Assembly (NCBI GenBank): GCA_963705105.1
Contig: CAVPIW010000006.1
Span: 639,332-671,331 of the forward strand
Source of the DNA: an uncultured Nitrospiraceae bacterium
GTDB lineage: Bacteria; Nitrospirota; Thermodesulfovibrionia; Thermodesulfovibrionales; Dissulfurispiraceae
DNA: 32,000 nt
Direction of reading: 5' to 3'
In this document: piece by piece, positions 3,764-32,000 of the stretch
Layout of the letters: every line of letters starts with the position of its first letter
Numbering within the stretch: position 1 is the first letter of the stretch
Notes under the pieces: generated by a model
Seen by the model: only the letters and a program-made list of their open reading frames with translations
Databases searched by the model: none
What the model was told of the DNA's origin: nothing
Position numbers and translations under genes: made by a program

Positions 3764-4381
3764 TCATATGATCCCCAGCAGCTTCAGCCCGTCGCGAAAA
3801 AGAACAATTGCCAAAACACATAAGACGATCCCGAGGAAACGCATCGCGCAGACATAGGGCTTACCGTCCAGAAATGATCTCGATTTGCCGACCAGCAGGG
3901 ATAGCAATATTTTTGATCCCACCAAAAAGACATAAAAACCGCAAATGAAGGCGGCCGATGCAAAAATGCTGATGTTCATAGCCCTGGTCATTGTCGGAGC
4001 GCCGACACTAAACCAAAACAAGTAGGGATGCGGGCTGAGAGCGTTTGCCAATATGCCTTTCCTCAGGGATTTGGCCTTCTTCGCCTCAGTATTCACCTCA
4101 ACTCCTTTCGAGCGTATCCCCTCGCAGCCCATACACAGAATGAAGAAACCGCCGGCTAGTGAAATGATCCCCAATACGGCATGGAAATCGGATAACTTCG
4201 CCAAAATGAAACAAGTTGCGATAATGATCGGCAAATCGGTGATGAACGGCGCGAGAGCGACTTTTATGCCCGATCTGATACCGTGCTGCAGGGTTTCGGA
4301 GATGACGAGGGTCAGGAGAGGGCCCGGGGCGAGTCCCGCCGACAGGCCCAGTATGATCCCGATGGTCAGGTATGTTGTCAT
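3764..4381 (-). CDS. LysE/RhtB-family amino-acid exporter
   Basis: 205 aa with about six TM segments. The N-terminal 'GLSAGLAPGPLLTLVISETL' and central 'ANALSPHPYLFW' motifs are characteristic of LysE-type translocators. AAGGAG SD upstream. Confidence 0.85.
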   Translation of the reverse strand: MTTYLTIGIILGLSAGLAPGPLLTLVISETLQHGIRSGIKVALAPFITDLPIIIATCFILAKLSDFHAVLGIISLAGGFFILCMGCEGIRSKGVEVNTEAKKAKSLRKGILANALSPHPYLFWFSVGAPTMTRAMNISIFASAAFICGFYVFLVGSKILLSLLVGKSRSFLDGKPYVCAMRFLGIVLCVLAIVLFRDGLKLLGII

Positions 4382-4687
4382 TCCGCACTTCTCCTTCCCC
4401 GGTCAGGCTGCTTGCCCGGATGCTGACCGGCCGGATCATGGCTTAACCTTGCGGGCACATGAGAAGGCGGGGCGAAGCGCCTGTCCGGACTCCCTATTGC
4501 AACAATACGATTAATATAGCACAGCACCCCTGACCAGAATATTGTGCAGCCAGACTTTGAAAACGAGGATAGGATGTGATGCCCCATCCTCGGGCCACGT
4601 TATTTTGGACACCAATGATAGCACAGACAACCACAATGACCGCGTGACAGCCGACTGCTGCCTTCCGTCCCGTCCCACGGGGACCTG

Positions 4688-6064
4688 TCACGTGGACTGG
4701 CTGAGGGCGGCATAGACAATCAAAATCGCGACGACCATGACGTGGAGAAACGCGTAATTTCTCCGTGGAATCATGCCCTCGAAATCGCCTTTATGAAAAA
4801 GACGGAGGACATTGTGGCTTGCCGCCGCCCCGACAGCAAGGATAAGCAACGATAGGATGCCGATGAACCGTTCATCCACGACAAATCGCCACCGGGAAAG
4901 GTCCATCCCCGCCTGACTGCCGAGGGTCGGGAAAAATGAACCCGCTTCCGACAGGAAGTATGCGAGCCGGTAGACGAGCTCCCCAGTAAAGGTGAAGGGG
5001 ACGAGCACGGGGACCATCGGCGAAAAACGTCCGAAGACCTCGTCTTCCGTTACCGTGAACAGCCTTGCCCCGACCCGTATGAGACCGAGAAAAAAGAGGA
5101 AGCCAGCTCCGAGAAGCACGGTGAAAGCGACAAGGTCCGACTGATGAAAATAGGTTTTCAGCGGCACGAACCAGGCCTTTTCATAAATGAAACGGGCGAG
5201 CTGGGAACCCATGAGAAAGGGGATGATAAAAGAGCAGGTGAGGTAACGGCCCTTGTTGATCACCAGTTCCGCAAAGGGGTTCCGCAGGTTTATCCTCGGC
5301 GAATCGTAGGGGCACATCGGGACGCAGTGGCCGCAGACAAGGCAATCGAGGTTGTTCCGCACATTGACGGCACCGAGATAGACGGGGCAGCCGGCGCCGC
5401 CTGCCGTGCCCTTCCGGCAGGAAGCGGTTTTGCAGGTTTTGCAGACAGCGAGATCAGGCCTGAACTCCGTAATGGAGATGGTGGCGGCGGACCCTATGAT
5501 CCTGCCCATGGGGCAGACGTGGCGGCACCAGGCCTGTCCCTTGAAGAGGACCTCCATAAGTGTTGCGCCGGCGATGATCGCCACGAGCAGGATCGCCGTC
5601 CCGGACGGCGATTCCTTGAGGTTGAAGACGGATTCCGCCCAGAGAATGACAGCCAGGAAGAATGTAGACAGATAGACGCCGTTCTTCTGCAGGAACCGCG
5701 GTACGTCGGCGTTGAATCTCATCCCGAAACGGCGCAGGATGCGTCCGACACCGGGGAACGGGCAAAAGCCGCACCAAAGCCTCCCGGTGAAGAACCAGCT
5801 CAGTACGATGGTCGTCCACCAGACACCCCAGACCATGAAAAGGATCGCATTCCGGTCCGGGTCCTGGGGACCGAAGAACCCGACAAGGATGATGACGGTG
5901 AAAACGATGTCTCCGAAGGTCCGTACCGCCGCAAAATACCGGCGGTCTGCGAAAAACCTCTTCAACGGGGGAAAGGCTTCGAAAAGGTTTATGCGCGCCT
6001 GACGGTCGTCAGGGAGGACGATCCCCAGCGCCTGACGGAGGATTTTTCTCGCTGTCATGTACAC
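4688..6064 (-). CDS. Membrane-bound polyferredoxin (NapH/MauN-like 4Fe-4S protein) with a C-terminal multi-TM extension
   Basis: Membrane CxxCP motifs: WCGFCPFPG and WCRHVCPMG. Two ferredoxin-type clusters: CKTCKTASC...CP and CLVCGHCVPMCP. Hydrophobic segments sit on both sides. Last gene of the rsmI-ABC operon. Confidence 0.8.
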   Translation of the reverse strand: MYMTARKILRQALGIVLPDDRQARINLFEAFPPLKRFFADRRYFAAVRTFGDIVFTVIILVGFFGPQDPDRNAILFMVWGVWWTTIVLSWFFTGRLWCGFCPFPGVGRILRRFGMRFNADVPRFLQKNGVYLSTFFLAVILWAESVFNLKESPSGTAILLVAIIAGATLMEVLFKGQAWCRHVCPMGRIIGSAATISITEFRPDLAVCKTCKTASCRKGTAGGAGCPVYLGAVNVRNNLDCLVCGHCVPMCPYDSPRINLRNPFAELVINKGRYLTCSFIIPFLMGSQLARFIYEKAWFVPLKTYFHQSDLVAFTVLLGAGFLFFLGLIRVGARLFTVTEDEVFGRFSPMVPVLVPFTFTGELVYRLAYFLSEAGSFFPTLGSQAGMDLSRWRFVVDERFIGILSLLILAVGAAASHNVLRLFHKGDFEGMIPRRNYAFLHVMVVAILIVYAALSQST

Positions 6065-6069
6065 GCCTT

Positions 6070-6813
6070 CTATTCGCTGTAGTTCCTGATCAACCGCGAG
6101 CCGTAGAGAAAAAACGCTGCGGCATAGGCGACGAGAACGGCGAGGGAGACGAGGGCCTCCTCGTCGAGCGACGCCTTCCTGATGACGATATTCGTGTGGG
6201 TCAAAGGGAAAACGGTGATGAGCATCCCGATGGCGGCGGGCATGCGGTCGACGGGGAAGAAGGTCCCGCTGAAGAACGCCATGGGCAGGATGAAGAAGTT
6301 GGTATATGTCGCCGTGTCCTCGTGAGACTTGGAGACCATGCCCGTGATGACGCCGAGACTGGCGAAGAGGAAGCAGTTGAGCAGGAGGGTGCCGGCGAAA
6401 AGGGGCGTGAGAAAAAACCCGTCGACGGCGATGAATCCGACGGAGATGATGAGCGACGAGGCGAAGAGACCCTTCACCATGCCTGCCAGGACTTCACCGA
6501 TCATTATGGAGGAAGGGCTGATCGGCGCCTGGACGAAGACCTGGAAAGTCTTGAAGTAGATCCTGTTGAGGTTGAGGGCGCTCGCGACCCAGGTGTAAGA
6601 GTTGTTCATGGAGCTCATGGCCACGATGCCCGGAAGCAGGTACGTGAGGTAATCGACGCCCTGGACTGTGACGCCCCTGCCGAGGCCGAACCCGAAGGTG
6701 ATCAGGTAGATGATGGGGACGACCATGGCAGAGAAGAGGTATCCGATCTTGAGCAGTTTCCTCCGGAAAAGGAGCATCTCCCGGAGAAAGATGGGGTACC
6801 ATTTCATCATCAT
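6070..6813 (-). CDS. ABC-2 type transporter permease
   Basis: 247 aa with six predicted TM segments and typical ABC-2 permease organisation. ATGA overlap with the upstream ATPase gene. Confidence 0.85.
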   Translation of the reverse strand: MMMKWYPIFLREMLLFRRKLLKIGYLFSAMVVPIIYLITFGFGLGRGVTVQGVDYLTYLLPGIVAMSSMNNSYTWVASALNLNRIYFKTFQVFVQAPISPSSIMIGEVLAGMVKGLFASSLIISVGFIAVDGFFLTPLFAGTLLLNCFLFASLGVITGMVSKSHEDTATYTNFFILPMAFFSGTFFPVDRMPAAIGMLITVFPLTHTNIVIRKASLDEEALVSLAVLVAYAAAFFLYGSRLIRNYSE

Positions 6814-7643
6814 GCCATGCGCTCCCCGGTAAGCTTGACGAAGACGTCCTCGAGGTTGGATGCCCTGATGGTCACGCCGTTGCGCATCTCGGCTGCCAGC
6901 GCGTTGGCTTCCTCACGGGTCCTCCGGATATGCTGGATGAGTTTTCCCCCGGCGTCCACGTGCTCCACCACGTACTCTCCGACCATGGCCTTCAGGTTTG
7001 ACGGCGTGTCGAGGGCGACCAGGCGGCCCCTGGCAAGGATGCCGATCCTGTTGCAGAGGGCCTCGGCCTCCTCGATGTAGTGCGTGGTGATGACGACGGT
7101 CCGGCCCTCGATCCGCACCTTCCTGATATTGTCCCACATCTGCCGCCGTATCTGGGGATCGAGGCCGAGAGATGGTTCGTCGAGGAAGAGGACTGACGGC
7201 TCCGTCAGGAGCGCCCGGGCGAGGAGGAGCCGTCTCTGCATGCCGCCTGAAAATCCCGAGACGACGGAGTCCTGCCTGTCCGAGAGGCCGACTGTCTTTA
7301 TGGCCTCTTCAATCACCCGTCGCCTCTGCCGGACATCGTGGAGCATGGAGTAGATAAGTAGGTTCTCATAGGCCGTCAGCTCCCTGTCCAGGTTGTTCTC
7401 CTGGGGGACGACGGCGATGCGCCTTTTCACCGCAATGGGGTCCTGCCGGACGTCGAAGCCGTCGACCCTGCAGACACCGCTGTCTGCCCGGCTCAGCGTC
7501 GTCAGGACCTTGATCGTCGTCGTCTTGCCCGCGCCGTTCGGCCCCAGGAGGCCGAAGACCTCGCCCTTCTCGATGGTGAAAGTGACGCCGTCGAGGGCGG
7601 TGATTGCGCCGTATCTTTTCGTGAGCCCCTGCACCTCAACCAT
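6810..7643 (-). CDS. ABC transporter ATP-binding protein
   Basis: Walker A GPNGAGKTT, signature SGGMQRRL, Walker B LLFLDEPSLGLD, H-loop TTHYIEE. Confidence 0.92.
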   Translation of the reverse strand: MVEVQGLTKRYGAITALDGVTFTIEKGEVFGLLGPNGAGKTTTIKVLTTLSRADSGVCRVDGFDVRQDPIAVKRRIAVVPQENNLDRELTAYENLLIYSMLHDVRQRRRVIEEAIKTVGLSDRQDSVVSGFSGGMQRRLLLARALLTEPSVLFLDEPSLGLDPQIRRQMWDNIRKVRIEGRTVVITTHYIEEAEALCNRIGILARGRLVALDTPSNLKAMVGEYVVEHVDAGGKLIQHIRRTREEANALAAEMRNGVTIRASNLEDVFVKLTGERMA

Positions 7644-8537: not shown

Positions 8538-9014
8538 TTACGACTTCTTCATGAAGCTGTCACGGAACGCCGCAAGCCAGCGGATGTGGCTCTTTTCCTC
8601 GTTGATGATCTCGTCGATGATCTCCTTTTCCTTCACGGCCTCACGGATGCCGTAATAATAGAGGAGCGATTCCTTCTCGAAGCCGATGGCGAATCTTATC
8701 ACCTCTCCGATGTCCGTCGTCGTCTCCATCGATGTCAGGGCCTTGTTGCTGCCGATGAAGAACTTCGACTCCACCATCGCCCTCATGTATTGCGACACCT
8801 CTTCCCAGCCGTCGGGCTCAGTGTCGCCGACGAGATCCCTGAGATCGGCGAAGGTCTTTTCGTGAACGACCTCCTTGTGGGCCAGATCGGTAAAGAAGGC
8901 GCTCAAACGCTCGTTGTCTTTGAATCTCTGCGCCATGGCGGAATAGAACTGGTGACCCAGTCTCTCCGTCTGGACGGCCTGCTCGATCACCTCTCTAATG
9001 GAATATTTCTCCAT
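8538..9014 (-). CDS. Ferritin-like / rubrerythrin-family diiron protein (no rubredoxin domain)
   Basis: Start taken at MEKYS (ATG 9014), which is preceded by GGAGG. Two E...ExxH pairs (QTERLG...KEVVHE and GFEKES...EEKSHI) fit a four-helix-bundle diiron site. Confidence 0.72.
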   Translation of the reverse strand: MEKYSIREVIEQAVQTERLGHQFYSAMAQRFKDNERLSAFFTDLAHKEVVHEKTFADLRDLVGDTEPDGWEEVSQYMRAMVESKFFIGSNKALTSMETTTDIGEVIRFAIGFEKESLLYYYGIREAVKEKEIIDEIINEEKSHIRWLAAFRDSFMKKS

Positions 9015-9060
9015 CCTTACCTCCGATATAGACATAGTCATTCAGACAGTAGTCAGTACC

Positions 9061-9262
9061 CTATCGTTGCATACGCCCTCAGGAAATGCGGGGCGAATGA
9101 GCCGAAAGCCTCGGTGCTGCGAAACCTTTGCCTTCCCGTAAAGGCCGTGTCAGACCGACGTCATGAAGAAAAGAGAACCTGTTGCTGACACTCATATACA
9201 CTGTCACTGACACTATATTTTCAGAGCGCTTTGCCTCGCATTTTTGCGCAACTGCAAAATCA
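9061..9262. repeat. Intergenic mosaic palindromic element, copy E1
   Basis: The left arm 'ATCGTTGCATACGCCCTCAGGAAATGCGGGGCGAA...' recurs at 11563-11605 (reverse) and 14371-14432. The right part, 9113-9254, is the reverse complement of 13326-13461. Confidence 0.8.
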
Positions 9263-9293
9263 GTCATTAAGTCATTGAGTCAGCAGTTGGTAC

Positions 9294-9584
9294 TCATCTG
9301 CATGTTACTCCACCTGCAGCAGTTTTCTCAAGCGCTCTGTCCGCCTGATAGACATCGTCGACGCTGTCGCCGGTGATGTCCCATGTATATTCCCCCTTGG
9401 CGTTCCGGTGCAGTTTCACCCTGACGGGCTTTTTCGGCTTCACCTGCTGGACCTGGGGGTTCTTGCCGACCTGGAATGCCTGCTGGCCCTGCGGTTTTTC
9501 AGCGGTCTGCGCGAAGACGGGCGATCCCCCAACCAGGAGACCGATTATTGTTGCCGCAACGACGATGCGTCGTATGGAAACCAT
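9294..9584 (-). CDS. Small secreted Gln/Lys-rich protein, probably co-transcribed with nadE
   Basis: Start chosen at MVSIRR (ATG 9584) with AAGGAG upstream, 10 nt after the nadE stop. Signal peptide ends ...SPVFA-QT. I recognise no family. Confidence 0.5.
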   Translation of the reverse strand: MVSIRRIVVAATIIGLLVGGSPVFAQTAEKPQGQQAFQVGKNPQVQQVKPKKPVRVKLHRNAKGEYTWDITGDSVDDVYQADRALEKTAAGGVTCR

Positions 9585-9594
9585 GTGCCGCTCC

Positions 9595-11346
9595 TTATCC
9601 CTCATACCTGTTCGTTATCGGGAACCTCCGGTCCTTGCCGAAGGCCCTCGGCGTTATCTTGACGCCGGGGGGCGACTGGCGTCTCTTGTACTCGCTCGTA
9701 TCGACCATCCTCAGGACACGCCGGACTGCCTGTTCCCCGCACCCCGGGACGGCACGGATTATCTCGTCATGACTCATGTCCTTCTCGATGTAATCGCGGA
9801 GGATCGGGTCGAGCACGTCGTAGGGAGGAAGGGTGTCCGTGTCACGCTGGTCAGGCTTGAGCTCCGCCGTCGGCGCCTTGACGAGCACCCGCTCCGGGAT
9901 GATGGCCCTCCCGGCGTCGTCGTTCCTCCACCGGCAGAGGTCATACACGAGGGTCTTGGGAACATCCTTGATGACGGCGAACCCGCCCGCCATATCCCCG
10001 TACAGCGTGGCATACCCCACGCTCATCTCCGACTTGTTTCCCGTCGTCAGCACGAGCCAGCCGAACTTGTTCGAGAAGGCCATCAGGATGTTCCCCCTGA
10101 TCCTCGCCTGGATGTTCTCCTCCGTCGTGTCGACGGGGAGGCCCGAAAACCAGGGACCGAGGGTGGCCAGGAACTGTTTGAATATGTCGTCAATGGGCAC
10201 TTCGATGACACGTATGCCGAGGGCCCCGGCAAGGTCCCTCACGTCCTGCCCGCTCTCGTCGGACGTATAGGGCGAAGGCATGAAGATCCCCGTGACGTGT
10301 TCATGCCCGACGGCATCGACGGCGACGGCGGCGACGATGGACGAATCGATGCCGCCGCTCAGGCCGATGCAGACCCCCGTGAACCTGTTCTTCCGGACAT
10401 AGTCTCCTGTTCCGAGCACGAGGGCGCGGTAGACTTCTTCCGGCCCTCCCGGCAACTGTTCCATCTTCACGGGGACGCGCCGGGGACAGGGAGGACGGCT
10501 TAACGCTCCCTGCGCGAAGGGACCGGGCAGGGGCACGCGCTCCGTCAGGCATCCCTGCTGCGACAGCACCTGTTTCCTCCTCCTCGGGTCATGGAGCCTT
10601 TTCATCAGGACGGCATCAAGATCGATATCGACGACTATGAGGTCCTCTTCGAATGCCTTGCCTTCGGCGATGATCTCTCCGCCCTGGTCGATGACGAAGC
10701 TGTGGCCGTCGAAGACGAGCTCGTCCTGGCCGCCGACGGTGTTCAGATACGCAACGGCAACGGAATTCTCCGAGGCGCGCGTCGAGAGCATCTTTCTGCG
10801 GAAGTCGGACTTGGCAATGTGGAAAGGAGAGGCGTTGATGTTGATGATGAGTTCCGCTCCTGCCAGGGCCTGGACCACCGTCGGGCCGTCGGGGTACCAG
10901 ATGTCCTCGCAGATGTTGACACCGAAGAGGACGCCGTTCATGTCGTAAACGGGGTACCTCGTGCCCGTCTGGAAATAGCGGAATTCGTCGAAGACGCCGT
11001 AGTTCGGCAGGTGTACCTTGTGATAGACATCGACAATCTTTCCGGACCGGATGACCGCCGCGGCGTTGAAGATGTCGTCTTTCCTGTCTACAAACCCGAC
11101 GACGACGGTGGCGTCGCCCACCATCTGCCGGACCTCGTCGAGGGCCTCCAGGTTGTCATCGATGAACTTCGGCCTCAGGAGCAGATCCTCGGGCGGGTAG
11201 CCCGTGATCGCAAGTTCCGGGAAGGCGATGATGTCAGGGCACAGCGGGGAGGCGTCGCCGATGAAGCGCCGTATCAGCTCCGTGTTTCCCCGGAGATCAC
11301 CGACGGTCGGGTTGATCTGGCAGAGGGCGATGCGAACCGTTCTCAT
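9595..11346 (-). CDS. nadE: Glutamine-dependent NAD+ synthetase
   Basis: N-terminal nitrilase/CN-hydrolase domain (IALCQINPTVGD..., FPELAITGYPPEDL, NICEDIW). C-terminal NAD synthetase domain with the P-loop GLSGGIDSS. Confidence 0.92.
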   Translation of the reverse strand: MRTVRIALCQINPTVGDLRGNTELIRRFIGDASPLCPDIIAFPELAITGYPPEDLLLRPKFIDDNLEALDEVRQMVGDATVVVGFVDRKDDIFNAAAVIRSGKIVDVYHKVHLPNYGVFDEFRYFQTGTRYPVYDMNGVLFGVNICEDIWYPDGPTVVQALAGAELIININASPFHIAKSDFRRKMLSTRASENSVAVAYLNTVGGQDELVFDGHSFVIDQGGEIIAEGKAFEEDLIVVDIDLDAVLMKRLHDPRRRKQVLSQQGCLTERVPLPGPFAQGALSRPPCPRRVPVKMEQLPGGPEEVYRALVLGTGDYVRKNRFTGVCIGLSGGIDSSIVAAVAVDAVGHEHVTGIFMPSPYTSDESGQDVRDLAGALGIRVIEVPIDDIFKQFLATLGPWFSGLPVDTTEENIQARIRGNILMAFSNKFGWLVLTTGNKSEMSVGYATLYGDMAGGFAVIKDVPKTLVYDLCRWRNDDAGRAIIPERVLVKAPTAELKPDQRDTDTLPPYDVLDPILRDYIEKDMSHDEIIRAVPGCGEQAVRRVLRMVDTSEYKRRQSPPGVKITPRAFGKDRRFPITNRYEG

Positions 11347-11390
11347 GCATCAATTGTAGCGCTCACCGGTGAAAATGTAAACATTCTATT

Positions 11391-11605
11391 TGTATAAAAA
11401 GGCGGGGCGAGGCGCCTCAAAGCCTCACTGGTAGCTGCGCGGTCTCCGGGACGGCAAATATGGTTCAAAGCCTTCCCGTCGGTGCGTTTATCGTCCCGTT
11501 TCTCTCTTTGCCTGCCGTCTATTGTCTATTGCATTCTGTCTACTGTCTACTGTTTCATGGCGCCTTTGCCCCGCATTTCCTGAGGGCGTATGCCACGATA
11601 AAGCG
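11391..11605. repeat. Intergenic mosaic palindromic element, copy E2, with an internal heptamer tandem array
   Basis: Left arm is AAAAGGCGGGGCGAGGCGCCTCAAAGCC. Right arm 11563-11605 is the reverse complement of the E1 left arm (25-nt exact core CATACGCCCTCAGGAAATGCGGGGC). Six tandem 7-mers (GTCTATT x2, GCATTCT, GTCTACT x2, GTTTCAT) lie at 11517-11558. Confidence 0.8.
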
Positions 11606-11617
11606 AACGTTGCCGTT

Positions 11618-11659
11618 GTTCTCTGTGATCTCTGTGACCTCTGTGGCTGAATGGCCTTT
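11618..11659. repeat. 42-nt module, identical copy A (9-mer tandem TCTCTGTGA-like)
   Basis: GTTCTCTGTGATCTCTGTGACCTCTGTGGCTGAATGGCCTTT is identical to 14591-14632. It lies 10 nt beyond the kinase stop codon on the minus strand. Confidence 0.9.
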
Positions 11660-11668
11660 GTTGCCTGT

Positions 11669-13012
11669 TTATTTCGGCAGGATAAAGTAGAAGTTGTTCC
11701 CGTACTGCGTCGGTTCGTACCCCACGACACCGCAGTGGAGCTCGATGACGTTCTTGATGAAGGCCAGCCCGTGACCGGTGCCGGGACGTTTCTCGGCATT
11801 CGATCCCCTGAAATCCTCATCGAAAATCCTGCCCCTCTCCACGGGCGGAATGTGAGGTCCGGTGCTGAAGACGTTGTACTTGACACCGTCCCTGCCCTCT
11901 CCGAAATAATCCCTGATGATCTCCCGCCCGTAGGCTATATATTTCTTCCTCTCTCCCCAGTAGGTCTCGACTTCCTCGGTATACTTCACGGCGTTCGAAA
12001 AGAGGTTCGCGTAAACCTGGGCGAGCAGTCCCACATCGACGACGCTGATCGTCTCCTCCTCGGGGATGCCGCTCGTCTGGTCGTCGACGGCAATCCCCCT
12101 GTCCTGGAGCTGGTCGCTGTAGCGGTCGAGCTGCGGCCGCACCACGTCCCGCGTTATGAAACAGGGTTTCGTCCTGAGGATCAGGCGTCCCTGGTCGAAA
12201 TGGCTCCTCCTCAGGAGGGTCTCGAGAAAGAGACTCATGTTCTCGTAATGCTTTTCCAGATTCTCCAGTTCCTCCCTGAGCCCGCGGTTCACGTCGGCCA
12301 GCTCCGCAAGGACGCGGTCCTTGCATCCCCTGTCGCAGGGCTCCTCGTCCAGGTGAAGCAGGACGTCCTCTATCTCCCTGTTCTTGAGGATCTTCGCCTT
12401 GATGCGGCGCAGGTAGAGTTTATAGACGATGTTCGGCACGATGATGTTGTGCTCGATATCGGCGACGAGGTTGCGGATGAACCGCAGGTGCTCTGCATTC
12501 TTCTCGGCCATATACCGGTTGTGAATGTTGAATCCGATGCGGTTCGCAAACTTTTCGAAGAACAGCTTCTGCTGGTCATCCGGCTCCGCGATGGGGAAGA
12601 CCTCAAGGAACCCGAGGACCTTGTCCGTCGTTTTAAAGGGAAGCTGATTGATGAGCACGTCTTTCCCCCTGATCATCAGGACGAGACTCTTCAGATCGGT
12701 GTAATAGGGCGCGTCACGGGGAACGATATCAGCCGGCGGCGTTGTGTGAAGGGCCGACTCGTCCTCTTCAGTCGTCGCAACGAGTCTGAGTTCCGCCTTC
12801 TTCAATTCTATAAGATAGAGCCTGCATTCAAGCTTGAAAAAGCTTTTCGGGATGGCGACGCAGAGGTTGTAGAAGTCATCGACCTTGTCGATTTCCTGGG
12901 CCAGGTCGAAAAACGTCTTGAGGGCGTCGTTCTCGCGCTGCGAGAAGTTGTACCTCCAATAATCCCCCTTTTTCTGCTCGATTCTTTCCAGAATGTTTTC
13001 CCGGATCGCCAT
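11669..13012 (-). CDS. GAF-domain sensor histidine kinase (orphan, atypical H-box region)
   Basis: HATPase_c motifs: N-box LLAQVYANLFSNAVKYT and G2 box RPGTGHGLAFIKNVIELH. N-terminal GAF-like region (...LGFLEVFP...KFANRIGFNIHNR). The putative phospho-His lies in 'LVADIEHNII'. No response regulator is adjacent. Confidence 0.78.
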   Translation of the reverse strand: MAIRENILERIEQKKGDYWRYNFSQRENDALKTFFDLAQEIDKVDDFYNLCVAIPKSFFKLECRLYLIELKKAELRLVATTEEDESALHTTPPADIVPRDAPYYTDLKSLVLMIRGKDVLINQLPFKTTDKVLGFLEVFPIAEPDDQQKLFFEKFANRIGFNIHNRYMAEKNAEHLRFIRNLVADIEHNIIVPNIVYKLYLRRIKAKILKNREIEDVLLHLDEEPCDRGCKDRVLAELADVNRGLREELENLEKHYENMSLFLETLLRRSHFDQGRLILRTKPCFITRDVVRPQLDRYSDQLQDRGIAVDDQTSGIPEEETISVVDVGLLAQVYANLFSNAVKYTEEVETYWGERKKYIAYGREIIRDYFGEGRDGVKYNVFSTGPHIPPVERGRIFDEDFRGSNAEKRPGTGHGLAFIKNVIELHCGVVGYEPTQYGNNFYFILPK

Positions 13013-13325
13013 GGCGTTATCCCCTGCGAGGAATTGATTGATCGGCGCATCGCACCATGCCCATCAATCCTCACGATTCAAATTACGGATTGAGACAATG
13101 ATCACATCAGAATGTTGCCCGATATTATATCAGATTCTTCGGCCCGCGGGGTTTTCATAAGAGCTCATTGGTGTCCAAAATAGCCTGAAACCAGGACAGG
13201 AATCGATTTCTTCACAATAAACAAGGGCGCTCTATTTTCCGGCCCTATCCCCTGCATGTCTGAAACATTTCAGAAATATTTCCTCCCTTGCACGCTGGCT
13301 GCGATTTCCATACAATTATTATTAC

Positions 13326-13461
13326 GGTTGCATGAAAAGGCGGGGCAAAGCGCTCTGAAAATATAGTGTCAGTGACAGTGTGAGTGTCAGCAAAAGGTTC
13401 TCTTTTCTTCAGACGTCGGCCTATAATGGTCTCTATGGGACGGCAAAGGTGTCGCAGCACC
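13326..13461. repeat. Intergenic mosaic element, copy E3 (inverted partner of 9113-9254)
   Basis: GGTTGCATGAAAAGGCGGGGCAAAGCGCTCTGAAAATATAGTGTCAGTGACAGTGTGAGTGTCAGCAAAAGGTTCTCTTTTCTTCAGACGTCGG...GGCAAAGGTGTCGCAGCACC aligns with the reverse complement of 9113-9254. Differences are a few substitutions and a 4-nt indel. Confidence 0.85.
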
Positions 13462-13501
13462 ACAATACCATGACAATCAGGTACCGAAAGGGGGCAAGCG
13501 C

Positions 13502-14263
13502 ATGTGCCTCGTACTTCTCGCATGGCATGCACATCGTGATTATCCGCTGATCGTCGCAGCGAACCGCGACGAGTTCTTCGATCGCCCCACCGGGCAGGCG
13601 GCCTTCTGGGAGGATAACCCTGGAGTGCTCGGGGGCAGAGACCTGGCCCGGGGCGGCACATGGCTCGGCATCACCCGCTCAGGCCGGTTCGCAGCACTCA
13701 CGAACTATCGCGAACCGTCTCTGAAACTCCGCGATGCGCTGTCGCGGGGCGCAGTGGTCGCCCGCTTCCTGACGGACGAAGAGAGCCCTGCCCGGTTTCG
13801 GGACTTCCTTGATACCGAGGGACACAAGTACAACGGGTTCAACATCCTGTTCAGCGACGGCCGCACAATGGGCTACTACTCGAACGTCGACGGCGGAGGA
13901 CGGGTGTTGGCACCCGGCATATACGGGCTGTCCAATCACCTGCTCGACACGCCCTGGCCGAAGGTCGTCCGCGCGAAGAATGCCGTCTCCTCCGCAATTG
14001 ACGCACTGCCGGATGTTGAGCCGCTCTTCACGCTGCTGCGGGATGACCGCATCGCCCATGATGAGGAGCTGCCCGATACCGGCGTGAGCCTCGACTGGGA
14101 GAGGCTGCTCTCCGCGGCATTCGTCCGCTCGCCTTCCTACGGGACGCGGTCGAGCACGGTTTTGTTCGTCACCGCAGGTGGCCTGACGCGATTCGTCGAA
14201 AGGACCTTCCTGCACGACGGGGCGCCGGGCGGAGACGCCGCATTCACCTTCTATACAGTGTGA
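13502..14263 (+). CDS. NRDE-family (TANGO2/DUF833-like) protein
   Basis: Begins MCLVLLAW...PLIVAANRDEF, i.e. N-terminal Cys2 plus the eponymous NRDE motif. AAAGGGGG SD upstream. Confidence 0.85.
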   Translation: MCLVLLAWHAHRDYPLIVAANRDEFFDRPTGQAAFWEDNPGVLGGRDLARGGTWLGITRSGRFAALTNYREPSLKLRDALSRGAVVARFLTDEESPARFRDFLDTEGHKYNGFNILFSDGRTMGYYSNVDGGGRVLAPGIYGLSNHLLDTPWPKVVRAKNAVSSAIDALPDVEPLFTLLRDDRIAHDEELPDTGVSLDWERLLSAAFVRSPSYGTRSSTVLFVTAGGLTRFVERTFLHDGAPGGDAAFTFYTV

Positions 14264-14662
14264 GTGTGAGTGTCAGTGTCAGTGAATGTGCACGTTCTTA
14301 TCATGGATATGGCCACCCTCCCCCCCAGGGGAAGAGGGGTTGGGAGATAGGCACGGCGATTATTAACCTTATCGTTGCAATACACTCCCGGGAAAGGCGG
14401 GGTGTATGCGCCGAAAACCTTGCTGCGGCGACTCCTGTATCAAAACGAAAGATGAACTATACGCCAATGGTCGATGACACAAAGAGTGGAATCCTGAAAC
14501 ACGAAGATGACAATGCGTATCGTCGCCTTCAGCAAGGCTTTGAGGCGCTTCGCCCCGCCTTTCTATTCAACGACAGGGTTTATTTCCCCCGTTCTCTGTG
14601 ATCTCTGTGACCTCTGTGGCTGAATGGCCTTTCTCTGCGCTCTTTGCGGCTTTGCGTGAGAC
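14264..14662. repeat. Intergenic mosaic repeat block E4 between convergent genes
   Basis: Hexamer run (GTGTGA)2(GTGTCA)2 at about 14257-14290, overlapping the NRDE stop. Inverted arms at 14371-14432 and 14522-14575 around an 89-nt loop. 42-nt module at 14591-14632. GCGCTCTTTGCGGCTTTGCGTGAGAC at 14637-14662, abutting the vWA gene stop. Confidence 0.85.
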
Positions 14663-16951
14663 TACAGGACGATCGTCACCGTCGCCCCTGTGGAGACGTG
14701 AGCCCCGAAGTCCCATCGCTGCATCACCTTCCTAAGACAGTCAGCGACGGGTTTCGATGCCGCAGAGGTGACGGACGTCACCTTCCCCTTTTTGATGACG
14801 ATGGACAGCATGATCTGACCGTGAAGCCCTTTGCCTGCGAGGCATCTTTTCATATCGACAAGTTTACCGCTGAGCACCGCCTCAATCCCGGCTTTGTGCT
14901 CCCTCCGGTCCGCTTCGACCTTCGTGATGCGAAGAGAAAGGTCCCCCTCGCCTTCCGAGCGGCCCGTTTTTTCCTTCGCCGCGTCCTGTGCCATTTCTTT
15001 CCGCGACGTCTTGCGCTCCATGACTCCCAAAGCCTGAGGCGCCGCCGATGCCACGGCATAATTTGAAACCCCTTCGGGCAGGGGAAGCGGCTGCTTTATC
15101 GTCGTCGCATTCCCTCCGGCGTTCCTGACGAGCGTATCGACGGCGACGAACGAGGTGTATGCCGTCAGAAGGCTGTATTGCAGACCGAGCCTCGTCACCT
15201 CGCCGGTCCTGCCCTCGTCGGACCTGAGCGCGTTGTAGTCCGACAGGAGCGCCACCCTGTTCCTCGCCCAGAGAAAGCGCAGCGCTGAGTTCCTTCTTAT
15301 CGGGCTTTGCTGCACCCACATCGATGACTTCCGAGTGCTTCGAGTTCCCGGTGATACCGCCGACCCTGATGGTGCCTCCCGGCCTGCCCTTCCATTTCCC
15401 GCAGATCACTACGGGCCGGTCGGCAAGCACATCCGGAACCGAAGGGGGGTCCACATCGTAGACCTCGAATCCCCGGTAATCGATAGAGATGTTGGTGAGC
15501 ACAGGGGACTGGATGAGCTTCCGGAAGGCCGTTGCCTTCTCCCGGGCTTCCTCCGCCCTCGTCACCACGAAAGGCTCTCCCGCGCCGACCCTCGCCATGC
15601 CTTCGATAAGATGCCTGTTGACGGCTGAGCCGATGCCGAAGGTGAACATATTCGCGTCACCGAGATGTCTTCGCATGAGATCGAACACCTCCTCCTCGAC
15701 GGTCACATAACCGTCCGTGACAATGACCACGGTCCTCGAAAACCCCTTCGACCCCGGCAGGGAAAGGGCCCGTTTGAGTGCCGGCAGCAACTCTGTTCCT
15801 CCTCCCCCCGTCTGCCTTTCGATCACGTTCACCGCCTTCGCAATGTTCTCCTGCGTCGCAGGCAGCGACTTTTCGGCCATCACCGTGTTGCCGCCGGAAA
15901 AGAGGAGCACGTTGAAGACATCCGTCGGTCTCAGGCCGCCGATGAGGTCCTTCAGGAGCTTTTTCGAAATATCCAGGGGAAAGCCGTGCATCGATCCGGA
16001 CACGTCGACGATGAATATGTACTCGCGGCCGGGGATGTCTTTCGCTGTTACCCTCTTCGGCGGCTGCACCGTCAGGAGAAAGAAGTTCTCCCTTTCGCCC
16101 TCATAGAGGAGGAGTCCGGAGCCGATATGCCTGTCCGCCAGGGTATATCTCAGGATGAAATCCCTGTTGCCCGATCCTGCCTGCCCCTTCGCCAAAGAGA
16201 CCGCTGCAGAGGACGGCCCGCTGTAGCGTACATCGATTTTGTGCGACGGCGACGATATGCCGCTGACGGGAACGCCCGTCAGCAGGCTCGTCCTGATCTC
16301 GAATGAATAGGTCGGCGCCTGGCTTTCCTTCAGATAGGGGTTGCTCACCCACTTGTCGCCCGGGGACGTACCGCTTCCCGCATACCTCGGCCCCACGACG
16401 GTCGGGTAGACGAACTCATAGATCCCGTCGGTGGGCACGACGATTTCGGTGTATTTGAGTTCAACCTTCACCACGTCACCGGGCATGATGTTGCCGACGG
16501 TCATCTGGAAGACATTGGGCCTCTGCTGTTCCAGGAGCGACGCCGTTTTGCCTTCCCTGACCGCCTCGTCGTAGCGTTTTCGTGCCTCTTCCTTTTTTTG
16601 AATCACCGCGGTGATCGTCCTTTCCCCGATCGTCATCTTCATACCATATACCGCCGCCCGCGTCGAAGCAGGAAAGACATAGACGGCCTCGATGGCCTTT
16701 TTACCGCGGTTTTCATAGACCTGCGTCACCTGTACATCGGCGATCACCCCGGCGATGTTCACCGCAGCAGATGTCGACGTGAGGGGCAGGCTCTCCGCGC
16801 CCTCATCACCGCCGGGGACAAAGAAGTACGGCGCCAGGGTCCTGTCCCCCGATTCATCCTCCTTCGGCCCGTCGACTCCCTTCGACCAGCACAGACCCGA
16901 TACAACGAGAACAACGGCAACTGCAAACCCGATCAACTTCATTCTCTCCAT
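14662..16951 (-). pseudogene. VIT + von Willebrand factor A domain protein, reading frame broken by a 1-nt frameshift near 15293
   Basis: Start at MERMKLIGF (ATG 16951, AAGGAGG upstream) with a signal peptide. VIT-like region, then vWA MIDAS 'IFIVDVSGSM'. After '...VIDVGAAKPDKK' the long ORF becomes Arg-rich nonsense. The family-typical continuation 'NSALRFLWARNRVALLSDYN...SFVAVD' lies in another frame (track ORF 14662..15321). Confidence 0.7.
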
Positions 16952-17275
16952 GGTGCTTCCTCCTTGTATGAATGGGTTTTGGTTCTTAGATGCCGCAGGG
17001 GGAGGAAAAGTTCCCGAAAAAGACAGGCAATACGAGAGCCGGCAGTCAGCAGTCAATATAACAGTCATAATAACGAGCACCATGGCGATGATGGTCCCGG
17101 GTGAAATCTCAAAGCGCACTACTTCCGCTCGGGCGGGACCATCTTTCGGCGGTGGCTCGTGCCGCTGCCCCTCCCATCGCGATGATGGTGCGTCGTACCA
17201 TGCTGCTCATCAGAGTGAGACGTCTTTTCTCCTTCACCGTCAAGGAAGCCCGCTCACTGCCTGATTGAAGAAGCT

Positions 17276-26700: not shown

Positions 26701-29526
26701 GGTTACGCCATTTCCGGCGACCTCCCGATCGTGCTGTTGCAGATCGGAGACCCGGCCAACATCGACCTGGTGCGCCAGCTCGTCCAGGCCCACGCATACT
26801 GGCGTCTCAAAGGACTGGAAGTGGACCTCGTGATCTGGAACGAGGATCACGCCGGCTACCGGCAGGTCCTGCAGGAGCAGATCATGGGACTCATTGCCGC
26901 AGGCGTCGAGGCGAACGTGATGGATCGACCGGGCGGCATCTTCGTGAGACCTGCAGACCAGATATCGGGCGAGGACCGCATCCTGTTTCAGACGGTCAGC
27001 CGCGCCATCATCACCGACACACTCGGCCCGCTCGCGGACCAGATCAATCGCCGCAGTATTATGCCGCTTGCAGTACCGCGCCTTGCCCCGACCGGGAGCC
27101 CCCGCACAGAATCTGCGACTGCCGGGGCGATGACCCGCAGCGATCTGCTGTTCTTCAACGGACTCGGTGGATTCACCCCTGACGGCCACGAGTACATCAT
27201 CACGACGGCCCGCGAACAGGTGACGCCGGCGCCCTGGGTGAATGTGATCGCCAACGCGCACTTCGGAACGGTTGTTTCGGAAAGCGGAGGCGCGTACACC
27301 TGGAGCGAGAATGCCCATGAGTTCCGCCTCACCCCCTGGTGCAACGATCCGGTCAGCGATGCTGGCGGAGAAGCTTTTTACCTCCGCGATGAAGAGAGCG
27401 GCCTCTTCTGGTCCCCTTCGCCGCTGCCGGGCCGGGGGGCGATGCATTACGTCAGCCGCCATGGATTCGGCTACAGTGTCTTTGAACATACGGAGGACGG
27501 CATAAGATCAGAGATGTGGATTTACGTGGCGATGGATGCGTCGGTCAAGTTGACGGTATTGAAGGTAAGAAACGAATCGGGCCGGTCCCGCCGGCTCTCG
27601 GCCACCGGGTATGTGGAATTGGTGCTGGGAGATCTGCGGCAGAAAACGGCAATGCATGTGAGCACCGAAATCGACCCCAAAACAGGCGCGCTTTTCTGCC
27701 GGAACCCGTACAACACGGAGTTTGCCGGGCGGACCGCCTTCTTCGACACCGATGAGACGACCCGCACCGTGAGCGGCGACCGGACGGAGTTCCTTGGCCG
27801 TAACGGCACGCTCCGGAGCCCGGAGGCGATGACCGGCGCGTGGCTTTCAGGCAGGGTGGGGGCCGCCCTGGACCCCTGCGCCGCTATCCAGGTCCCCTTC
27901 GATCTTGCCGACGGGCAGGAGCGGGAGATCATCTTCAGGCTTGGCGTGGGACGGGATTCATTTGAGGCCGGCCAACTGGTACACCGCTTCCGCGGATCTG
28001 CCGCCGCGCGCGGGGCGCTCGAAAAGGTCTGGCAGCACTGGAATCACACCCTCGGAGCGGTGCAGGTTGAAACACCGGACCAGTCCGTCAATGTACTGGC
28101 CAACGGGTGGCTCTTATATCAAACTCTGGCCTGTCGTCTTTGGGCGCGGAGCGGATACTACCAGTCCGGGGGCGCCTTCGGCTTCCGCGACCAGTTGCAG
28201 GACGTGATGGCGCTTATCCACTCCGAGCCCTCGCTCGTGCGCGAACACCTCCTGCTCTGCGCAGCCCGTCAGTTCAGGGAGGGAGACGTCCAGCACTGGT
28301 GGCATCCCCCTTCAGGACGGGGCGTGCGCACACACTGTTCGGACGACCTTCTCTGGTTGCCCCTGGCTGTGTGCCGTTATGTGCTGACGACCGGAGACAC
28401 GGGAGTGCTGGATGAAACCGTCCGCTTCATCGAGGGCCGGCCGGTAAACAAGGACGAGGACTCGTATTACGATCTTCCCCACGCGTCCGAAGAGACGGCG
28501 AGTTTGTACGATCACTGTGTGCGGGCCATTCTGGGGGGCCTCAGCCGCGGCGAACACGGATTGCCCCTCATCGGCTCGGGTGATTGGAACGACGGCATGA
28601 ACATGGTGGGCGCTCACGGCAGGGGTGAGAGCGTTTGGCTGGCATTCTTCCTTTATAAAGTGCTCATGGAGTTCTGCGGGATTGCCCGTCTGCACGGTGA
28701 TCCGCCCTTTGCCGAACGCTGCCGGGAGGAAGCTGCTCAACTGCTCAGAAGTATCGAAGAGCATGGCTGGGACGGCGAGTGGTACCGGCGCGCCTACTTT
28801 GATGACGGCTCCCCCCTGGGTTCGGCAGGCAATCCCGAATGCCGGATCGACTCCATAGCGCAGAGCTGGTCCGTTCTCTCCGGCGCCGGGGATGCCGGAC
28901 GCTCGCAGACGGCAATGGAAGCGGTGGACAGGCGCCTTGTTCGACGGGACCATGGCCTTATCCAGCTCCTCGATCCGCCCTTCGACACATCGGATCTGAA
29001 TCCCGGCTATATAAAGGGATACGTCCCGGGTGTACGGGAGAACGGGGGGCAATACACGCATGCGGCGATCTGGACGGTGATGGCCTTTGCCGCGTTGGGC
29101 GACCGCAGTCGCGCATGGGAACTGCTGGCAATGATCAACCCGGTGAACCATGGGAGGACCAGGGAGGAAACAGCGACGTATAAAGTTGAACCCTACGTCG
29201 TCGCTGCCGACGTCTATGCGGTCTCGCCGCATACCGGCCGCGGCGGATGGACATGGTACACGGGATCGGCAGGCTGGATGTACAGGCTTATCCTTGAATC
29301 ACTCCTTGGGCTGAGGCGCGAAGGAGACAGGCTACGTTTCACGCCCTGTCTGCCCGGGGACTGGGAAGCGTTCAGTGTGCATTACCGGTACGGGGAGACC
29401 GTCTATCACATCAACGTTCTTCAACGGGGCGGCGGCAGTGCAGCGGGTGTGACCGTCGATGGCGCTAATACCCTGATAGGCACGTTCGTCCGGCAACTGG
29501 CTGCACGCCTCAGGTTGACCGGCTGA
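20779..29526 (+). CDS. ndvB: Cyclic beta-1,2-glucan synthase (NdvB/ChvB/Cgs family: GT84 + central domain + GH94 phosphorylase-like domain)
   Basis: 2,915-aa ORF. GT84-type motifs: [11 protein letters not shown] and [10 protein letters not shown], within a multi-TM region. GH94-type C-terminal motifs: [16 protein letters not shown]...[26 protein letters not shown]...[17 protein letters not shown]. The true start is uncertain: TTG 20779, or ATG 20794, 20848 or 20887, the last with the best SD-like GGTGAG. Confidence 0.9.
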
Positions 29527-29564
29527 AAAGCTCGTAGAGCCGGCGATTGAGATCCTGATCGAAG
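29479..29564. repeat. 86-bp direct repeat, copy 1 (contains the last 15 codons and stop of the glucan synthase gene)
   Basis: 85/86 identical to 31008-31093, with a single A/G difference at 29496 versus 31025. The offset is exactly 1,529 bp. Confidence 0.95.
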
Positions 29565-29810
29565 ATTGAACAGCCCGACACGGCAATTTCCCTTGCTGAC
29601 GACCATCAGGAACATTCAGTTGAGGTGAGAATACCCGGCTTGTAAACCTGCCGCGCCTGTTTTCCTTAACGCTGCAAAAACGACAGGAAAAGGCGGATGG
29701 ACACCATTTCAGGCCAACATGGATAACACAACGGAAGATTTGAGGAGCCGTCCGAAGTCGTGGCTGATCGATATAGTGGAAGAGGAAGGGACGATACATG
29801 AACTCCGTTC

Positions 29811-30857: not shown

Positions 30858-31007
30858 GGCTGGTCCTGCGCTGCAAAGAAAGGACGCGGCGGAGGCTACT
30901 CAAGACTCCATCCAGGACCTCACACTGCCAACAGGTCAGAGTTCCTGAGTTTTTTCAATTGGACGCCGCATCGTGCATCAGCTGCAGCCGTGGCTGATGC
31001 CCCGCCG

Positions 31008-31093
31008 GGCACGTTCGTCCGGCAGCTGGCTGCACGCCTCAGGTTGACCGGCTGAAAAGCTCGTAGAGCCGGCGATTGAGATCCTGATCGAAG
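31008..31093. repeat. 86-bp direct repeat, copy 2 (contains the last 17 codons and stop of the DUF362 gene on the minus strand)
   Basis: See copy 1. It covers 31 nt downstream of the stop at 31039-31041 and 55 nt of DUF362 coding sequence. Confidence 0.95.
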
Positions 31094-32000
31094 GTTCCGT
31101 CTTTTATCTTCTGGAAAAAAAGATCCGTGATCGGGTCCGCGAGCAATCGGAGAAACTTTTTGGCGAGGCTTGGGTCCCTGTACTGGAACTTTGGGTCCAT
31201 GTAGGCGAAGACGGAGTAAATCAGGTTCCCGAAATAGTAGTGTCTATCCATCCCCGTGAAGAGAAACGGCGGAAAGACATCGGGCACGTTCTCCCAGACG
31301 GGATAGACGGATCGGTCTCCCACCAGATTGATCTCAGGTTTTCCGAAGGCCTCCACCGCCAGCTTCATGTAGTCGCTCACCATAGGGTCCAGCCCCATCT
31401 TCTCGGCACCTATCCAGTCGGCTGCGACGATGTCCTCACTGCCGATGATAGTCTCTGTCTCATTCGGGTCCTTGTCGGCGAAGACCCCGAAGGGACCGTC
31501 GGCGCTTCGAAAGGCGTCAATGAAACCAAAGTGGATAGGGAACTGCCTTATGAATTCTATGGCGGTCGAAAAGATGTCTCTCTCATGATGATACTCGAGA
31601 AACTTGTCCTCCATGGGCAGCGCGCCGTAGATATTCTTGATCGTCAGGGTGTAATAGGCGTAGGCATGCGTTTTGTTCTTGGCGAAGGAGATGCGAAAGT
31701 CCGCCTTTCGCCACTCCCGGTTGACATAGTGTGTGCCCAGTTTCCCGGAATAGCGGTACTCCTCGAGGTCCTCCGAGAGATCGATGATGCGGTAATTCTT
31801 CCCCGTCAATCCGATGTATTCGGCCACTGTCCTGACTTCCCGGTTCGTGAAGAACGTGCCGTACGTGCTCCTTGCCTCGCCGACGGCGAGGTTCCGGTAC
31901 CCGCGCTCGTACATCCTGTCAAGAAGATATTCGACCAATTCGGGGTCTGCGTAGGTCGTAGGGTCTTTTGTGGAATACATGAACATGAAGTTCGGCTTCA
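31039..32000 (-). CDS. DUF362-domain protein, 5'-truncated by the window edge
   Basis: The frame stays open upstream of ATG 31986 to the window end, reading ...KPNFMFMYS. 'IKPN' is the typical DUF362 N-terminal motif as I remember it. The product is conserved-looking and non-repetitive. Confidence 0.78.
   Translation of the reverse strand, partial: KPNFMFMYSTKDPTTYADPELVEYLLDRMYERGYRNLAVGEARSTYGTFFTNREVRTVAEYIGLTGKNYRIIDLSEDLEEYRYSGKLGTHYVNREWRKADFRISFAKNKTHAYAYYTLTIKNIYGALPMEDKFLEYHHERDIFSTAIEFIRQFPIHFGFIDAFRSADGPFGVFADKDPNETETIIGSEDIVAADWIGAEKMGLDPMVSDYMKLAVEAFGKPEINLVGDRSVYPVWENVPDVFPPFLFTGMDRHYYFGNLIYSVFAYMDPKFQYRDPSLAKKFLRLLADPITDLFFQKIKDGTFDQDLNRRLYELFSRST

Follow-up and report, generated by a model that had tools for sequence, protein, structure and literature searches.

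Bacterial MITEs (miniature inverted-repeat transposable elements), such as the Correia/NEMIS elements of Neisseria and the families that have spread in cyanobacterial bursts, are non-coding units of about 200 nt with inverted ends and a short target duplication, and they are dispersed between genes in many copies with a lineage specificity at the genus level (PMC11602168). Their size range in prokaryotes is 50-800 bp, and a survey of 183,232 genomes reported maxima of 468 MITEs per genome (161 kinds), 123 per Mb and 1.23% of the genome (PMC11602168). In addition, one report describes a Porphyromonas gingivalis MITE with an internal minisatellite (PMC4596501). In this study, we consider a stretch of 32,000 nt from an uncultured Nitrospiraceae bacterium, hereafter the window (contig CAVPIW010000006.1; G000:C6:639332-671331, where G000 is the label for the window's own genome assembly). 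Four of its intergenic gaps, E1 to E4, are built from shared repeat modules, for which a sequence-only reading had suggested three possible origins: a family of non-autonomous mobile elements, arrays that bind proteins, or genes for small RNAs. We consider it highly probable that the modules are copies, variants and remnants of one non-coding MITE family of approximately 200 bp. The mobile-element proposal is supported by inverted ends, a 4-bp target-site duplication, nested insertions and hundreds of dispersed intergenic copies.

The window holds four major copies, which are named after their gaps:

9058-9260, + strand: E1, a complete copy of the hexamer-type (alpha) subfamily with paired arms (element hidden Markov model (HMM), model positions 2-193, E 5.9e-49)
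11381-11604, - strand: E2, a complete copy of a rare heptamer variant, with arms in R-then-L inverted order; cluster of 2
13323-13462, - strand: E3, an alpha copy truncated on the left-arm side (HMM model positions 55-192 only, E 9.3e-39)
14366-14579, + strand: E4, complete, from the younger beta subfamily; length 214 nt, arms paired over ~60 nt

The four gaps do share the same modules, and all of the motifs and arrays that had been listed for them were recovered in place by repeat finders and Tandem Repeats Finder (TRF). The inverted arms described at E1, E2 and E4 as forming units of about 200 bp belong to complete units that span 203-224 nt. E1 carries the core in its left arm, followed by an interior, a hexamer array (near 9186-9215) and the right arm; the copy is old, its termini are degenerate and no target-site duplication can be recognised. 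In the interior of E2, a GTCTAYT heptamer array replaces the hexamers (a period-7 array at 11517-11553 according to TRF), and this copy is linked to E4 and E1 through the inverted repeats I2 and I4. Inverted matches join 11378-11430 with 14530-14582 (53 nt, 81%) and 9062-9103 with 11559-11600 (42 nt, 90%). E3 is without a left arm but has kept its right arm, hexamer array and interior; it is 85-97% complementary to E1 across three blocks (I1, I3 and I5) and 85-88% identical to it, and 9198-9257 matches 13322-13381 in inverted orientation over 60 nt at 88%. At least 10 other copies match E4 at 93-95% identity. The statement that none of this encodes a plausible protein was upheld, and a codon-bias gene caller keeps no open reading frame (ORF) inside the window copies.

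The G000 assembly comprises 4.23 Mb (4,226,846 bases) in 19 contigs, with 57% GC and 99% completeness. In a BLAST comparison of the window with its own genome, up to 268, 178, 258 and 422 matches lie over gaps E1, E2, E3 and E4, respectively. Because the gaps belong to very large genome-wide repeat families, the modules are not confined to the window, and a purely local duplication is contradicted by the genome-wide count of arms. A consensus of ~197 nt with sharp boundaries was obtained from 70 long matches to E1. The copies are about 197-214 nt long, end in CCTTATCGTTGCA...TGCAACnnnAAGG, and carry imperfect terminal inverted repeats of 45-60 nt around the core AAAGGCGGGGyGnAnGCGCC. When the left and right arms are aligned, they share ACCTT, a variable 3-4 nt, GTTGCA, a spacer and ...AAAGGCGGGG...GCGC, and the spacer before AAAGGCGGGGyGnAnGCGC is 11 nt longer on the left side. 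A census with an arm HMM identified 1243 arms genome-wide, namely 499 inverted pairs and 245 solo arms. The elements have an orientation, since 483 of the 499 pairs combine an L arm with an R arm. The lengths of paired elements have modes at 190-220 nt and a tail at 260-400 nt, and matches to the whole-element HMM cover 99,620 of the 4,226,846 bases, or ~2.4% of the genome. A genome-wide search of the kind that the sequence-only reading had called for describes a dispersed family with 4-bp target duplications and no bias of orientation relative to genes. Compared with the maxima of the survey (PMC11602168), G000 carries ~499 paired copies of one superfamily, ~118 per Mb and ~2.4% of the genome, which places it at the upper end of what the survey reports, although the detection methods differ and the comparison is only indicative.

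At least three subfamilies share their arms but not their interiors. The beta type, to which E4 belongs, is 214 nt long with ~134 copies, and its identity to the consensus has a median of 88% and reaches 97%; its left terminus is conserved as well as its core, and the variable parts are the spacer and three bases inside the right terminus. The alpha type of E1 and E3 is 197 nt long, carries a (CACTSW)n hexamer array, and has ~116 copies with 79% identity to the consensus. A third subfamily of 214 nt has ~89 copies with 79% identity, and among the rarer forms are some with heptamer arrays (as in E2), some with octamer arrays and some whose interiors are composite and measure 260-400 nt. The modular reshuffling noticed in the gaps is real: the gaps look mosaic because interiors differ where arms are shared, because copies are truncated (E3), nested or interrupted by insertion sequences, because the 6-9-mer arrays inside them vary, and because small families of other repeats lie alongside. 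Hexamer arrays of the family kind number 370 in G000 according to TRF; an arm is no more than 40 nt away for 228 of them, and for 68 the nearest arm is at a distance of over 1 kb. The P. gingivalis MITE likewise has a tandem array inside it (PMC4596501), but the arrays of G000 differ in being very short (units of 6-9 nt in 3-6 copies) and subfamily-dependent.

Evidence for transposition lies at the element boundaries. The two bases outside ACCTT...AAGGT are the same on both sides in 157 of the 222 copies with canonical termini, compared with 30.6 when the partners are shuffled. In a shifted frame, the duplication comprises four bases, T-N-N-A around CCTT...AAGG, and the preferred target is TWWA. 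Of 261 copies, 133 have the same 4-mer on both flanks, with TAAA (24), TTAA (23) and TTTA (18) in the lead, followed by TATA. Outer positions other than T and A still agree between the two sides, as in TTAC/TTAC, TTTC/TTTC, TAAT/TAAT and AGAC/AGAC. Because the outer positions covary in this manner, the duplication is 4 bp rather than 2 bp with fixed element ends.

Further evidence was obtained from nested insertions. Each element was removed together with one 4-mer, and the joined flanks were searched against the genome. Other repeat copies could be aligned straight through the junction in the case of 69 elements, and many of these matches are ungapped with identical duplications. Examples include C14_248132 (TAAA, 95.8% over 166 nt), C6_1013681 (TTTA), C6_921370 (TTAA) and C7_304265 (TGTA), and further junctions include a TTTA case with a 25-nt exact junction and a TTAA case with 94.5% identity over 145 nt. 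In these nested cases, one copy has inserted into another, and the interrupted copy is exactly restored by deleting the element and one duplication. The family therefore has the features of a MITE, namely a non-coding length of 190-220 nt, terminal inverted repeats, a fixed 4-bp duplication and past mobility.

We propose that the copies are cut-down, non-coding derivatives of a DNA transposon that were mobilised in trans by a transposase. Insertion takes place at a 4-bp target, preferably T-W-W-A, which is duplicated in the process, and the underlying event would be a staggered 4-nt cut such as those made by DDE-type transposases. We infer the DDE-type mechanism from the inverted-repeat ends and the fixed length of the duplication. 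Successive bursts would have given rise to at least three subfamilies, whose copies would persist between genes, where the harm is small, with no sign of a host function.

The location of the copies was analysed using gene positions from our own crude codon-bias caller, which predicts 3374 genes in G000. With these crude calls, 424 of 478 elements (~89%) overlap genes by no more than 10%. Tandem, divergent and convergent gaps hold 289, 87 and 73 elements, respectively, tracking the available intergenic base pairs, and the median distance from a copy is 46 nt for stop codons and 81 nt for start codons. This pattern is the one that purifying selection against genic insertions would leave, and it does not hint at a strand-specific function. 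The copies also lie close to breaks in the assembly, with six of 38 contig ends within 400 nt of an arm. Several cases of insertion sequences inside MITE copies were seen in G000, including a 1953-nt DDE_Tnp_1 element within a hexamer array, flanked by a 3-bp duplication, GTG (G000:C10:241130-243084), and an ISL3-like element between the two arms of one copy (G000:C6:856616-857946).

An alternative explanation is that the copies are structured small RNAs or elements of untranslated regions (terminators or stabilisers) in which a hairpin has been selected and spread by duplication or recombination. The fold of E4 favours this explanation: the copy forms a long hairpin of -86.2 kcal/mol (z -6.6) with a conserved core. 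Any element with 60-nt inverted ends must, however, fold in this way. The core also differs between lineages while remaining self-complementary in each (GGCGGGG/CCCCGCC, GGCAGGG/CCCTGCC and GGGAGG/CCTCCC), but arms that are complementary across lineages are also the expectation for the two ends of one transposon. RNAalifold did not recover the hairpin from a cross-lineage MAFFT alignment, in which the left arms were out of register. Compensatory changes were counted in 86 beta copies, which were gathered by their interior only to avoid bias. Across 68 predicted pairs with 724 one-sided changes, 19 compensatory double changes were found, compared with 18.0 expected, and 131 of 300 shuffles reach 19. 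In favour of an RNA role, paired positions in the 86 beta copies are somewhat less diverged than unpaired ones (0.074 vs. 0.114). Against an RNA role, the elements show no orientation bias in tandem gene contexts (134 in the same direction as the genes and 155 opposite), no copy in the window is picked up by a simple scan for terminators, and no Rfam 15 match was found at the gathering score in the whole window or at E<=1 in 9000-14700. The duplications and nested insertions point instead to spread by transposition. Selection on RNA structure thus has no support, the suggestion of small RNA genes was not sustained, and we consider this explanation very improbable.

A second alternative is that the copies are paired palindromes of the REP (repetitive extragenic palindromic)/REPIN type, which a domesticated tyrosine transposase (RAYT) propagates and which the host retains for structural roles in DNA or RNA. 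Such an origin would suit copies that are abundant, intergenic and palindromic, with arms ~90-150 nt apart, and G000 has four Y1_Tnp (PF01797) matches as well as the 245 solo arms. IS200/IS605-type Y1 transposases are not known to make a target-site duplication, whereas a 4-bp duplication is present here. Moreover, all four Y1 genes are free of arms over a distance of ~900 nt, and the arms are 45-60 nt long rather than 20-40 nt. According to the reports on REP elements, bacterial interspersed mosaic elements (BIMEs), REPINs and RAYTs (PMC2817692, PMC3733652), those systems likewise form abundant extragenic palindromes in mosaic arrays; the G000 family differs from them in its duplication, its longer arms, the lack of an associated RAYT, and the lack in its arms of the GTAG or CGTC heads of the REP superfamilies (PMC3733652). 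Because of the duplication and the absence of any association with Y1 genes, we reject the REP/RAYT explanation, which we regard as scarcely credible.

Several observations nevertheless weigh against the MITE reading. The gene calls on which the location statistics depend are crude, and the lower divergence of the paired positions may reflect weak constraint on the arms. The window copies are old: E1 and E2 are without matching duplications, and E4 is flanked by TTAA on one side and TTTA on the other. In four unrelated sediment and soil metagenomes (runs X1-X4), contigs cover the region at ~8x, and the summed word depth of E4 is 3900-6850. In a contig from run X3 (1235 nt, with flanks ~97% identical), only 59 nt stand in place of the 232 nt of the window (9030-9261) that span E1. 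This E1 allele of a related strain, which is 173 nt shorter, counts in favour of transposition, but as a length polymorphism and not as a demonstrated precise empty site. Presence/absence variation among relatives, which the sequence-only reading had recommended as a check, is here found as a difference in length. A search of the contigs found no close strains with empty sites, and the relatives of NadE in JGI metagenomes are at most 70% identical and carried no element copy.

The missing transposase counts against the reading as well. G000 has 15 DDE_Tnp_1 matches in addition to the Y1_Tnp matches, and no match to PF13701 (IS1380-type) or PF13359 (DDE_Tnp_4). No autonomous element with the MITE termini was found in G000, and none of the multi-copy insertion sequences in this genome, whose ends were set from their copies, ends in a sequence like CCTTATCGTTGCA. 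The 1953-nt insertion sequence makes 3-bp duplications, and a 17-copy insertion sequence of 1380 nt makes 8-bp duplications. Pairs of arms 600-6000 nt apart were considered as autonomous partners, but they enclose ordinary genes or unrelated insertion sequences: IS3-like and ISL3-like insertions, a nitrogenase-type oxidoreductase, RsmB, NrfD/ferredoxin, an acyltransferase and DUF6909. Candidates of ~1.67 kb between arm pairs proved unrelated to one another, and pairing of the terminal 13-mer with up to 2-3 mismatches yielded chance pairs or noise only. The mobilising enzyme may have been lost, may lie in unassembled DNA, or may be an unrelated enzyme acting in trans.

One lead was that the MITE derives from, and was moved by, an insertion sequence of the IS1380 family (PF13701). 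IS1380-family elements have CC ends and AT-rich duplications of 4-5 bp, and the CC ends and 4-bp AT-rich duplication of the MITE fit this description. Genomes G004, G060 and G061 belong to the same bacterial family as G000, and their IS1380-family elements share both the CC termini and the 4-bp duplications. In G004, a PF13701 transposase (491 bits) has a MITE-like right arm 270 nt upstream, and close relatives of this insertion sequence make 4-bp duplications. An IS1380-type element of ~1.65 kb is present in three copies in G060, two in G061 and none in G000. The IS1380-type copies are as follows:

L147:1392-3043, L154 and L159 (G060): IS1380-type copies with ends CCCAGATAATTCATAAA
L148 and L155 (G061): IS1380-type copies with ends CCCAGATAATTCATAAA
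L144, ~1273-2926 (G004): IS1380-type copy with ends CCCAGATAATTCATAAA

The multi-copy relatives in G060 and G061 (72-74% identical) set the ends of the IS1380-type element as CCCAGATAATTCATAAA, with duplications of TTAG or CTAA, and the same ends occur in G004 at about L144:1273 and 2926. The MITE-like piece in G004 therefore lies outside the insertion sequence and is merely a neighbouring copy. These terminal repeats are unrelated to CCTTATCGTTGCA, and the IS1380-type target TTAG differs from the TWWA of the MITE. Furthermore, G000 has neither a PF13701 match nor a match to the G004-type IS1380 protein. An IS1380 origin is rejected because the termini differ, the target differs and G000 lacks PF13701; we judge it extremely improbable.

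A cognate insertion sequence with the same termini is usual for bacterial MITEs, though not required; for the G000 family none could be found, and its sequence fits no described family. Nothing similar occurs in the plasmid and phage collections, and together with the negative Rfam search this agrees with the absence of any match to a described repeat family. No paper on MITEs in Chloroflexota was found. A BLAST search did not detect the element in 40 relatives; among 67 other genomes of the family it was detected in one, and among 250 others of the order in two. G000 contains 193 exact copies of the terminal 13-mer, and the count per genome is 0-3 among 300 genomes of the order. The sister family in G004 has the same layout at ~210 nt, with 4-bp duplications of TTAC, TCAA, TCAA and TAGA, and a sister family of this layout in G301, which belongs to another family of the same order, has at least 40 copies with 79-93% identity. 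The inner blocks GCGATAC, AAAGGCTTTGAGG and TGCAAC...AGGGT are conserved across the three lineages. The family in G000 is otherwise like the described bacterial MITEs: ~200 nt, non-coding, with inverted ends and a short duplication, dispersed between genes in many copies, and lineage-specific at the genus level.

The element itself is of an ordinary kind, but its load is unusually high; the noteworthy features of the family are this load, the short tandem arrays of its interiors and the lack of a cognate transposase. There is a small chance that it may be more than a decaying parasite, in that the strongly conserved subterminal core and the short tandem arrays may have been recruited as sites for a host protein or the elements may depend on a transposase of an unrecognised type. 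The first option is modelled on the REP/BIME elements that bind host factors. An unrecognised kind of transposase would explain the ~500 copies, the burst with identities of up to 97%, and the lack of a cognate insertion sequence in a genome that is 99% complete.

For annotation, the MITE reading implies that approximately 500 intergenic stretches should be masked as one repeat family and should not be taken for regulatory leaders, small RNAs or palindromic operators. The load is among the heaviest single-family MITE loads comparable with the published survey, and the lineage that carries it is uncultured and little studied; two other genomes of the order show expanded sister families. The copies break assemblies and supply gene ends, as for the stop codon of a TANGO2-like gene, and they could act as strain markers in sediment metagenomes.

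The window also contains fragments and other repeats around the four copies:

4455-4482, + strand: solo fragment with the family core motif (AAGGCGGGGCGAAGCGCCT); 19 nt are 100% complementary to 14543-14561 (I20; also D7 and D19)
11609-11668, no strand: separate small repeat, TCTCTGTGA x3 followed by GGCTGAATGGCCTTT, outside the main element
13165-13222, no strand: different low-copy repeat that holds CATTGGTGTCCAAAATA, with 8 genome matches, outside the main element
14255-14299, - strand: isolated hexamer-array fragment (GTGTSA)n (HMM model positions 108-153; TRF period 6, 4.8 copies)
14591-14667, no strand: two adjoining nonamer-array repeats, TCTCTGTGA x3 at 14591-14632 and CTTTGCG x3 at 14626-14667

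The outlying fragments that had been grouped with the modules are of mixed origin: 4455-4482 does carry the family core, whereas 4587-4618/13165-13196 and 1968-2009 belong to other repeats. A similar division applies to the tandem arrays, since the hexamers and heptamers stand as family modules but the 9-mers of TCTCTGTGA x3 are a separate repeat and 14255-14299 is an isolated fragment. That fragment overlaps the end of the TANGO2-like gene (13502-14263, TANGO2 by Pfam), for which it supplies the final codons as well as the TGA stop. A contig from run X1 has several small insertions at 14248-14252, so the C-terminus of the TANGO2-like protein is strain-variable.

The repeat at 11609-11668 sits just past the stop of a histidine-kinase-like gene (HATPase_c by Pfam). 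Its TCTCTGTGA x3 module is 100% identical over 42 nt between 11618-11659 and 14591-14632 and has 16-17 genome matches, and the CTTTGCG x3 nonamer-array repeat occurs at 1968-2009 and 14626-14667, with ~50 genome matches. The nonamer arrays are separate small families that lie next to E4 and, at some loci, form the interior of element variants. The region 13165-13196 is related to 4587-4618 (I6, 81%), and 26 genome matches lie over 4524-4620. The CATTGGTGTCCAAAATA fragments at these two places resemble the subterminal GTGGACACCAAA of a 1275-nt insertion sequence with ~9 copies (G000:C13:9883-11157), and they may be relics of the ends of that insertion sequence or a second small MITE family. The dispersed repeats at 1774-1859 and 4524-4620, with 48 and 26 genome matches, respectively, are unrelated to the main element.

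An ORF at 14662-15321 (219 aa) has no Pfam match and, read in a different frame, overlaps a VIT/vWA gene (14882-17119) over the final 440 nt of that gene. Whether it represents a C-terminal extension displaced by a frameshift or is simply spurious decides the right edge of gap E4. A promoter-like site at 11353-11381, upstream of nadE, comprises TTTACA, a spacing of 17 nt and TACAAT (10 of 12 matches), and its first hexamer abuts the outer end of E2. A direct repeat of 104 nt joins 29464-29567 and 30993-31096 at 92% identity, 1529 nt apart. Elsewhere in G000, tandem units of ~91 nt form small satellite-like blocks at G000:C6:485636-485830 and 474762-474950, and each of these units combines a hexamer array with an array of CTTTGCG x3 and with TGAGATAATCTTGAAATATGTTCCATT.

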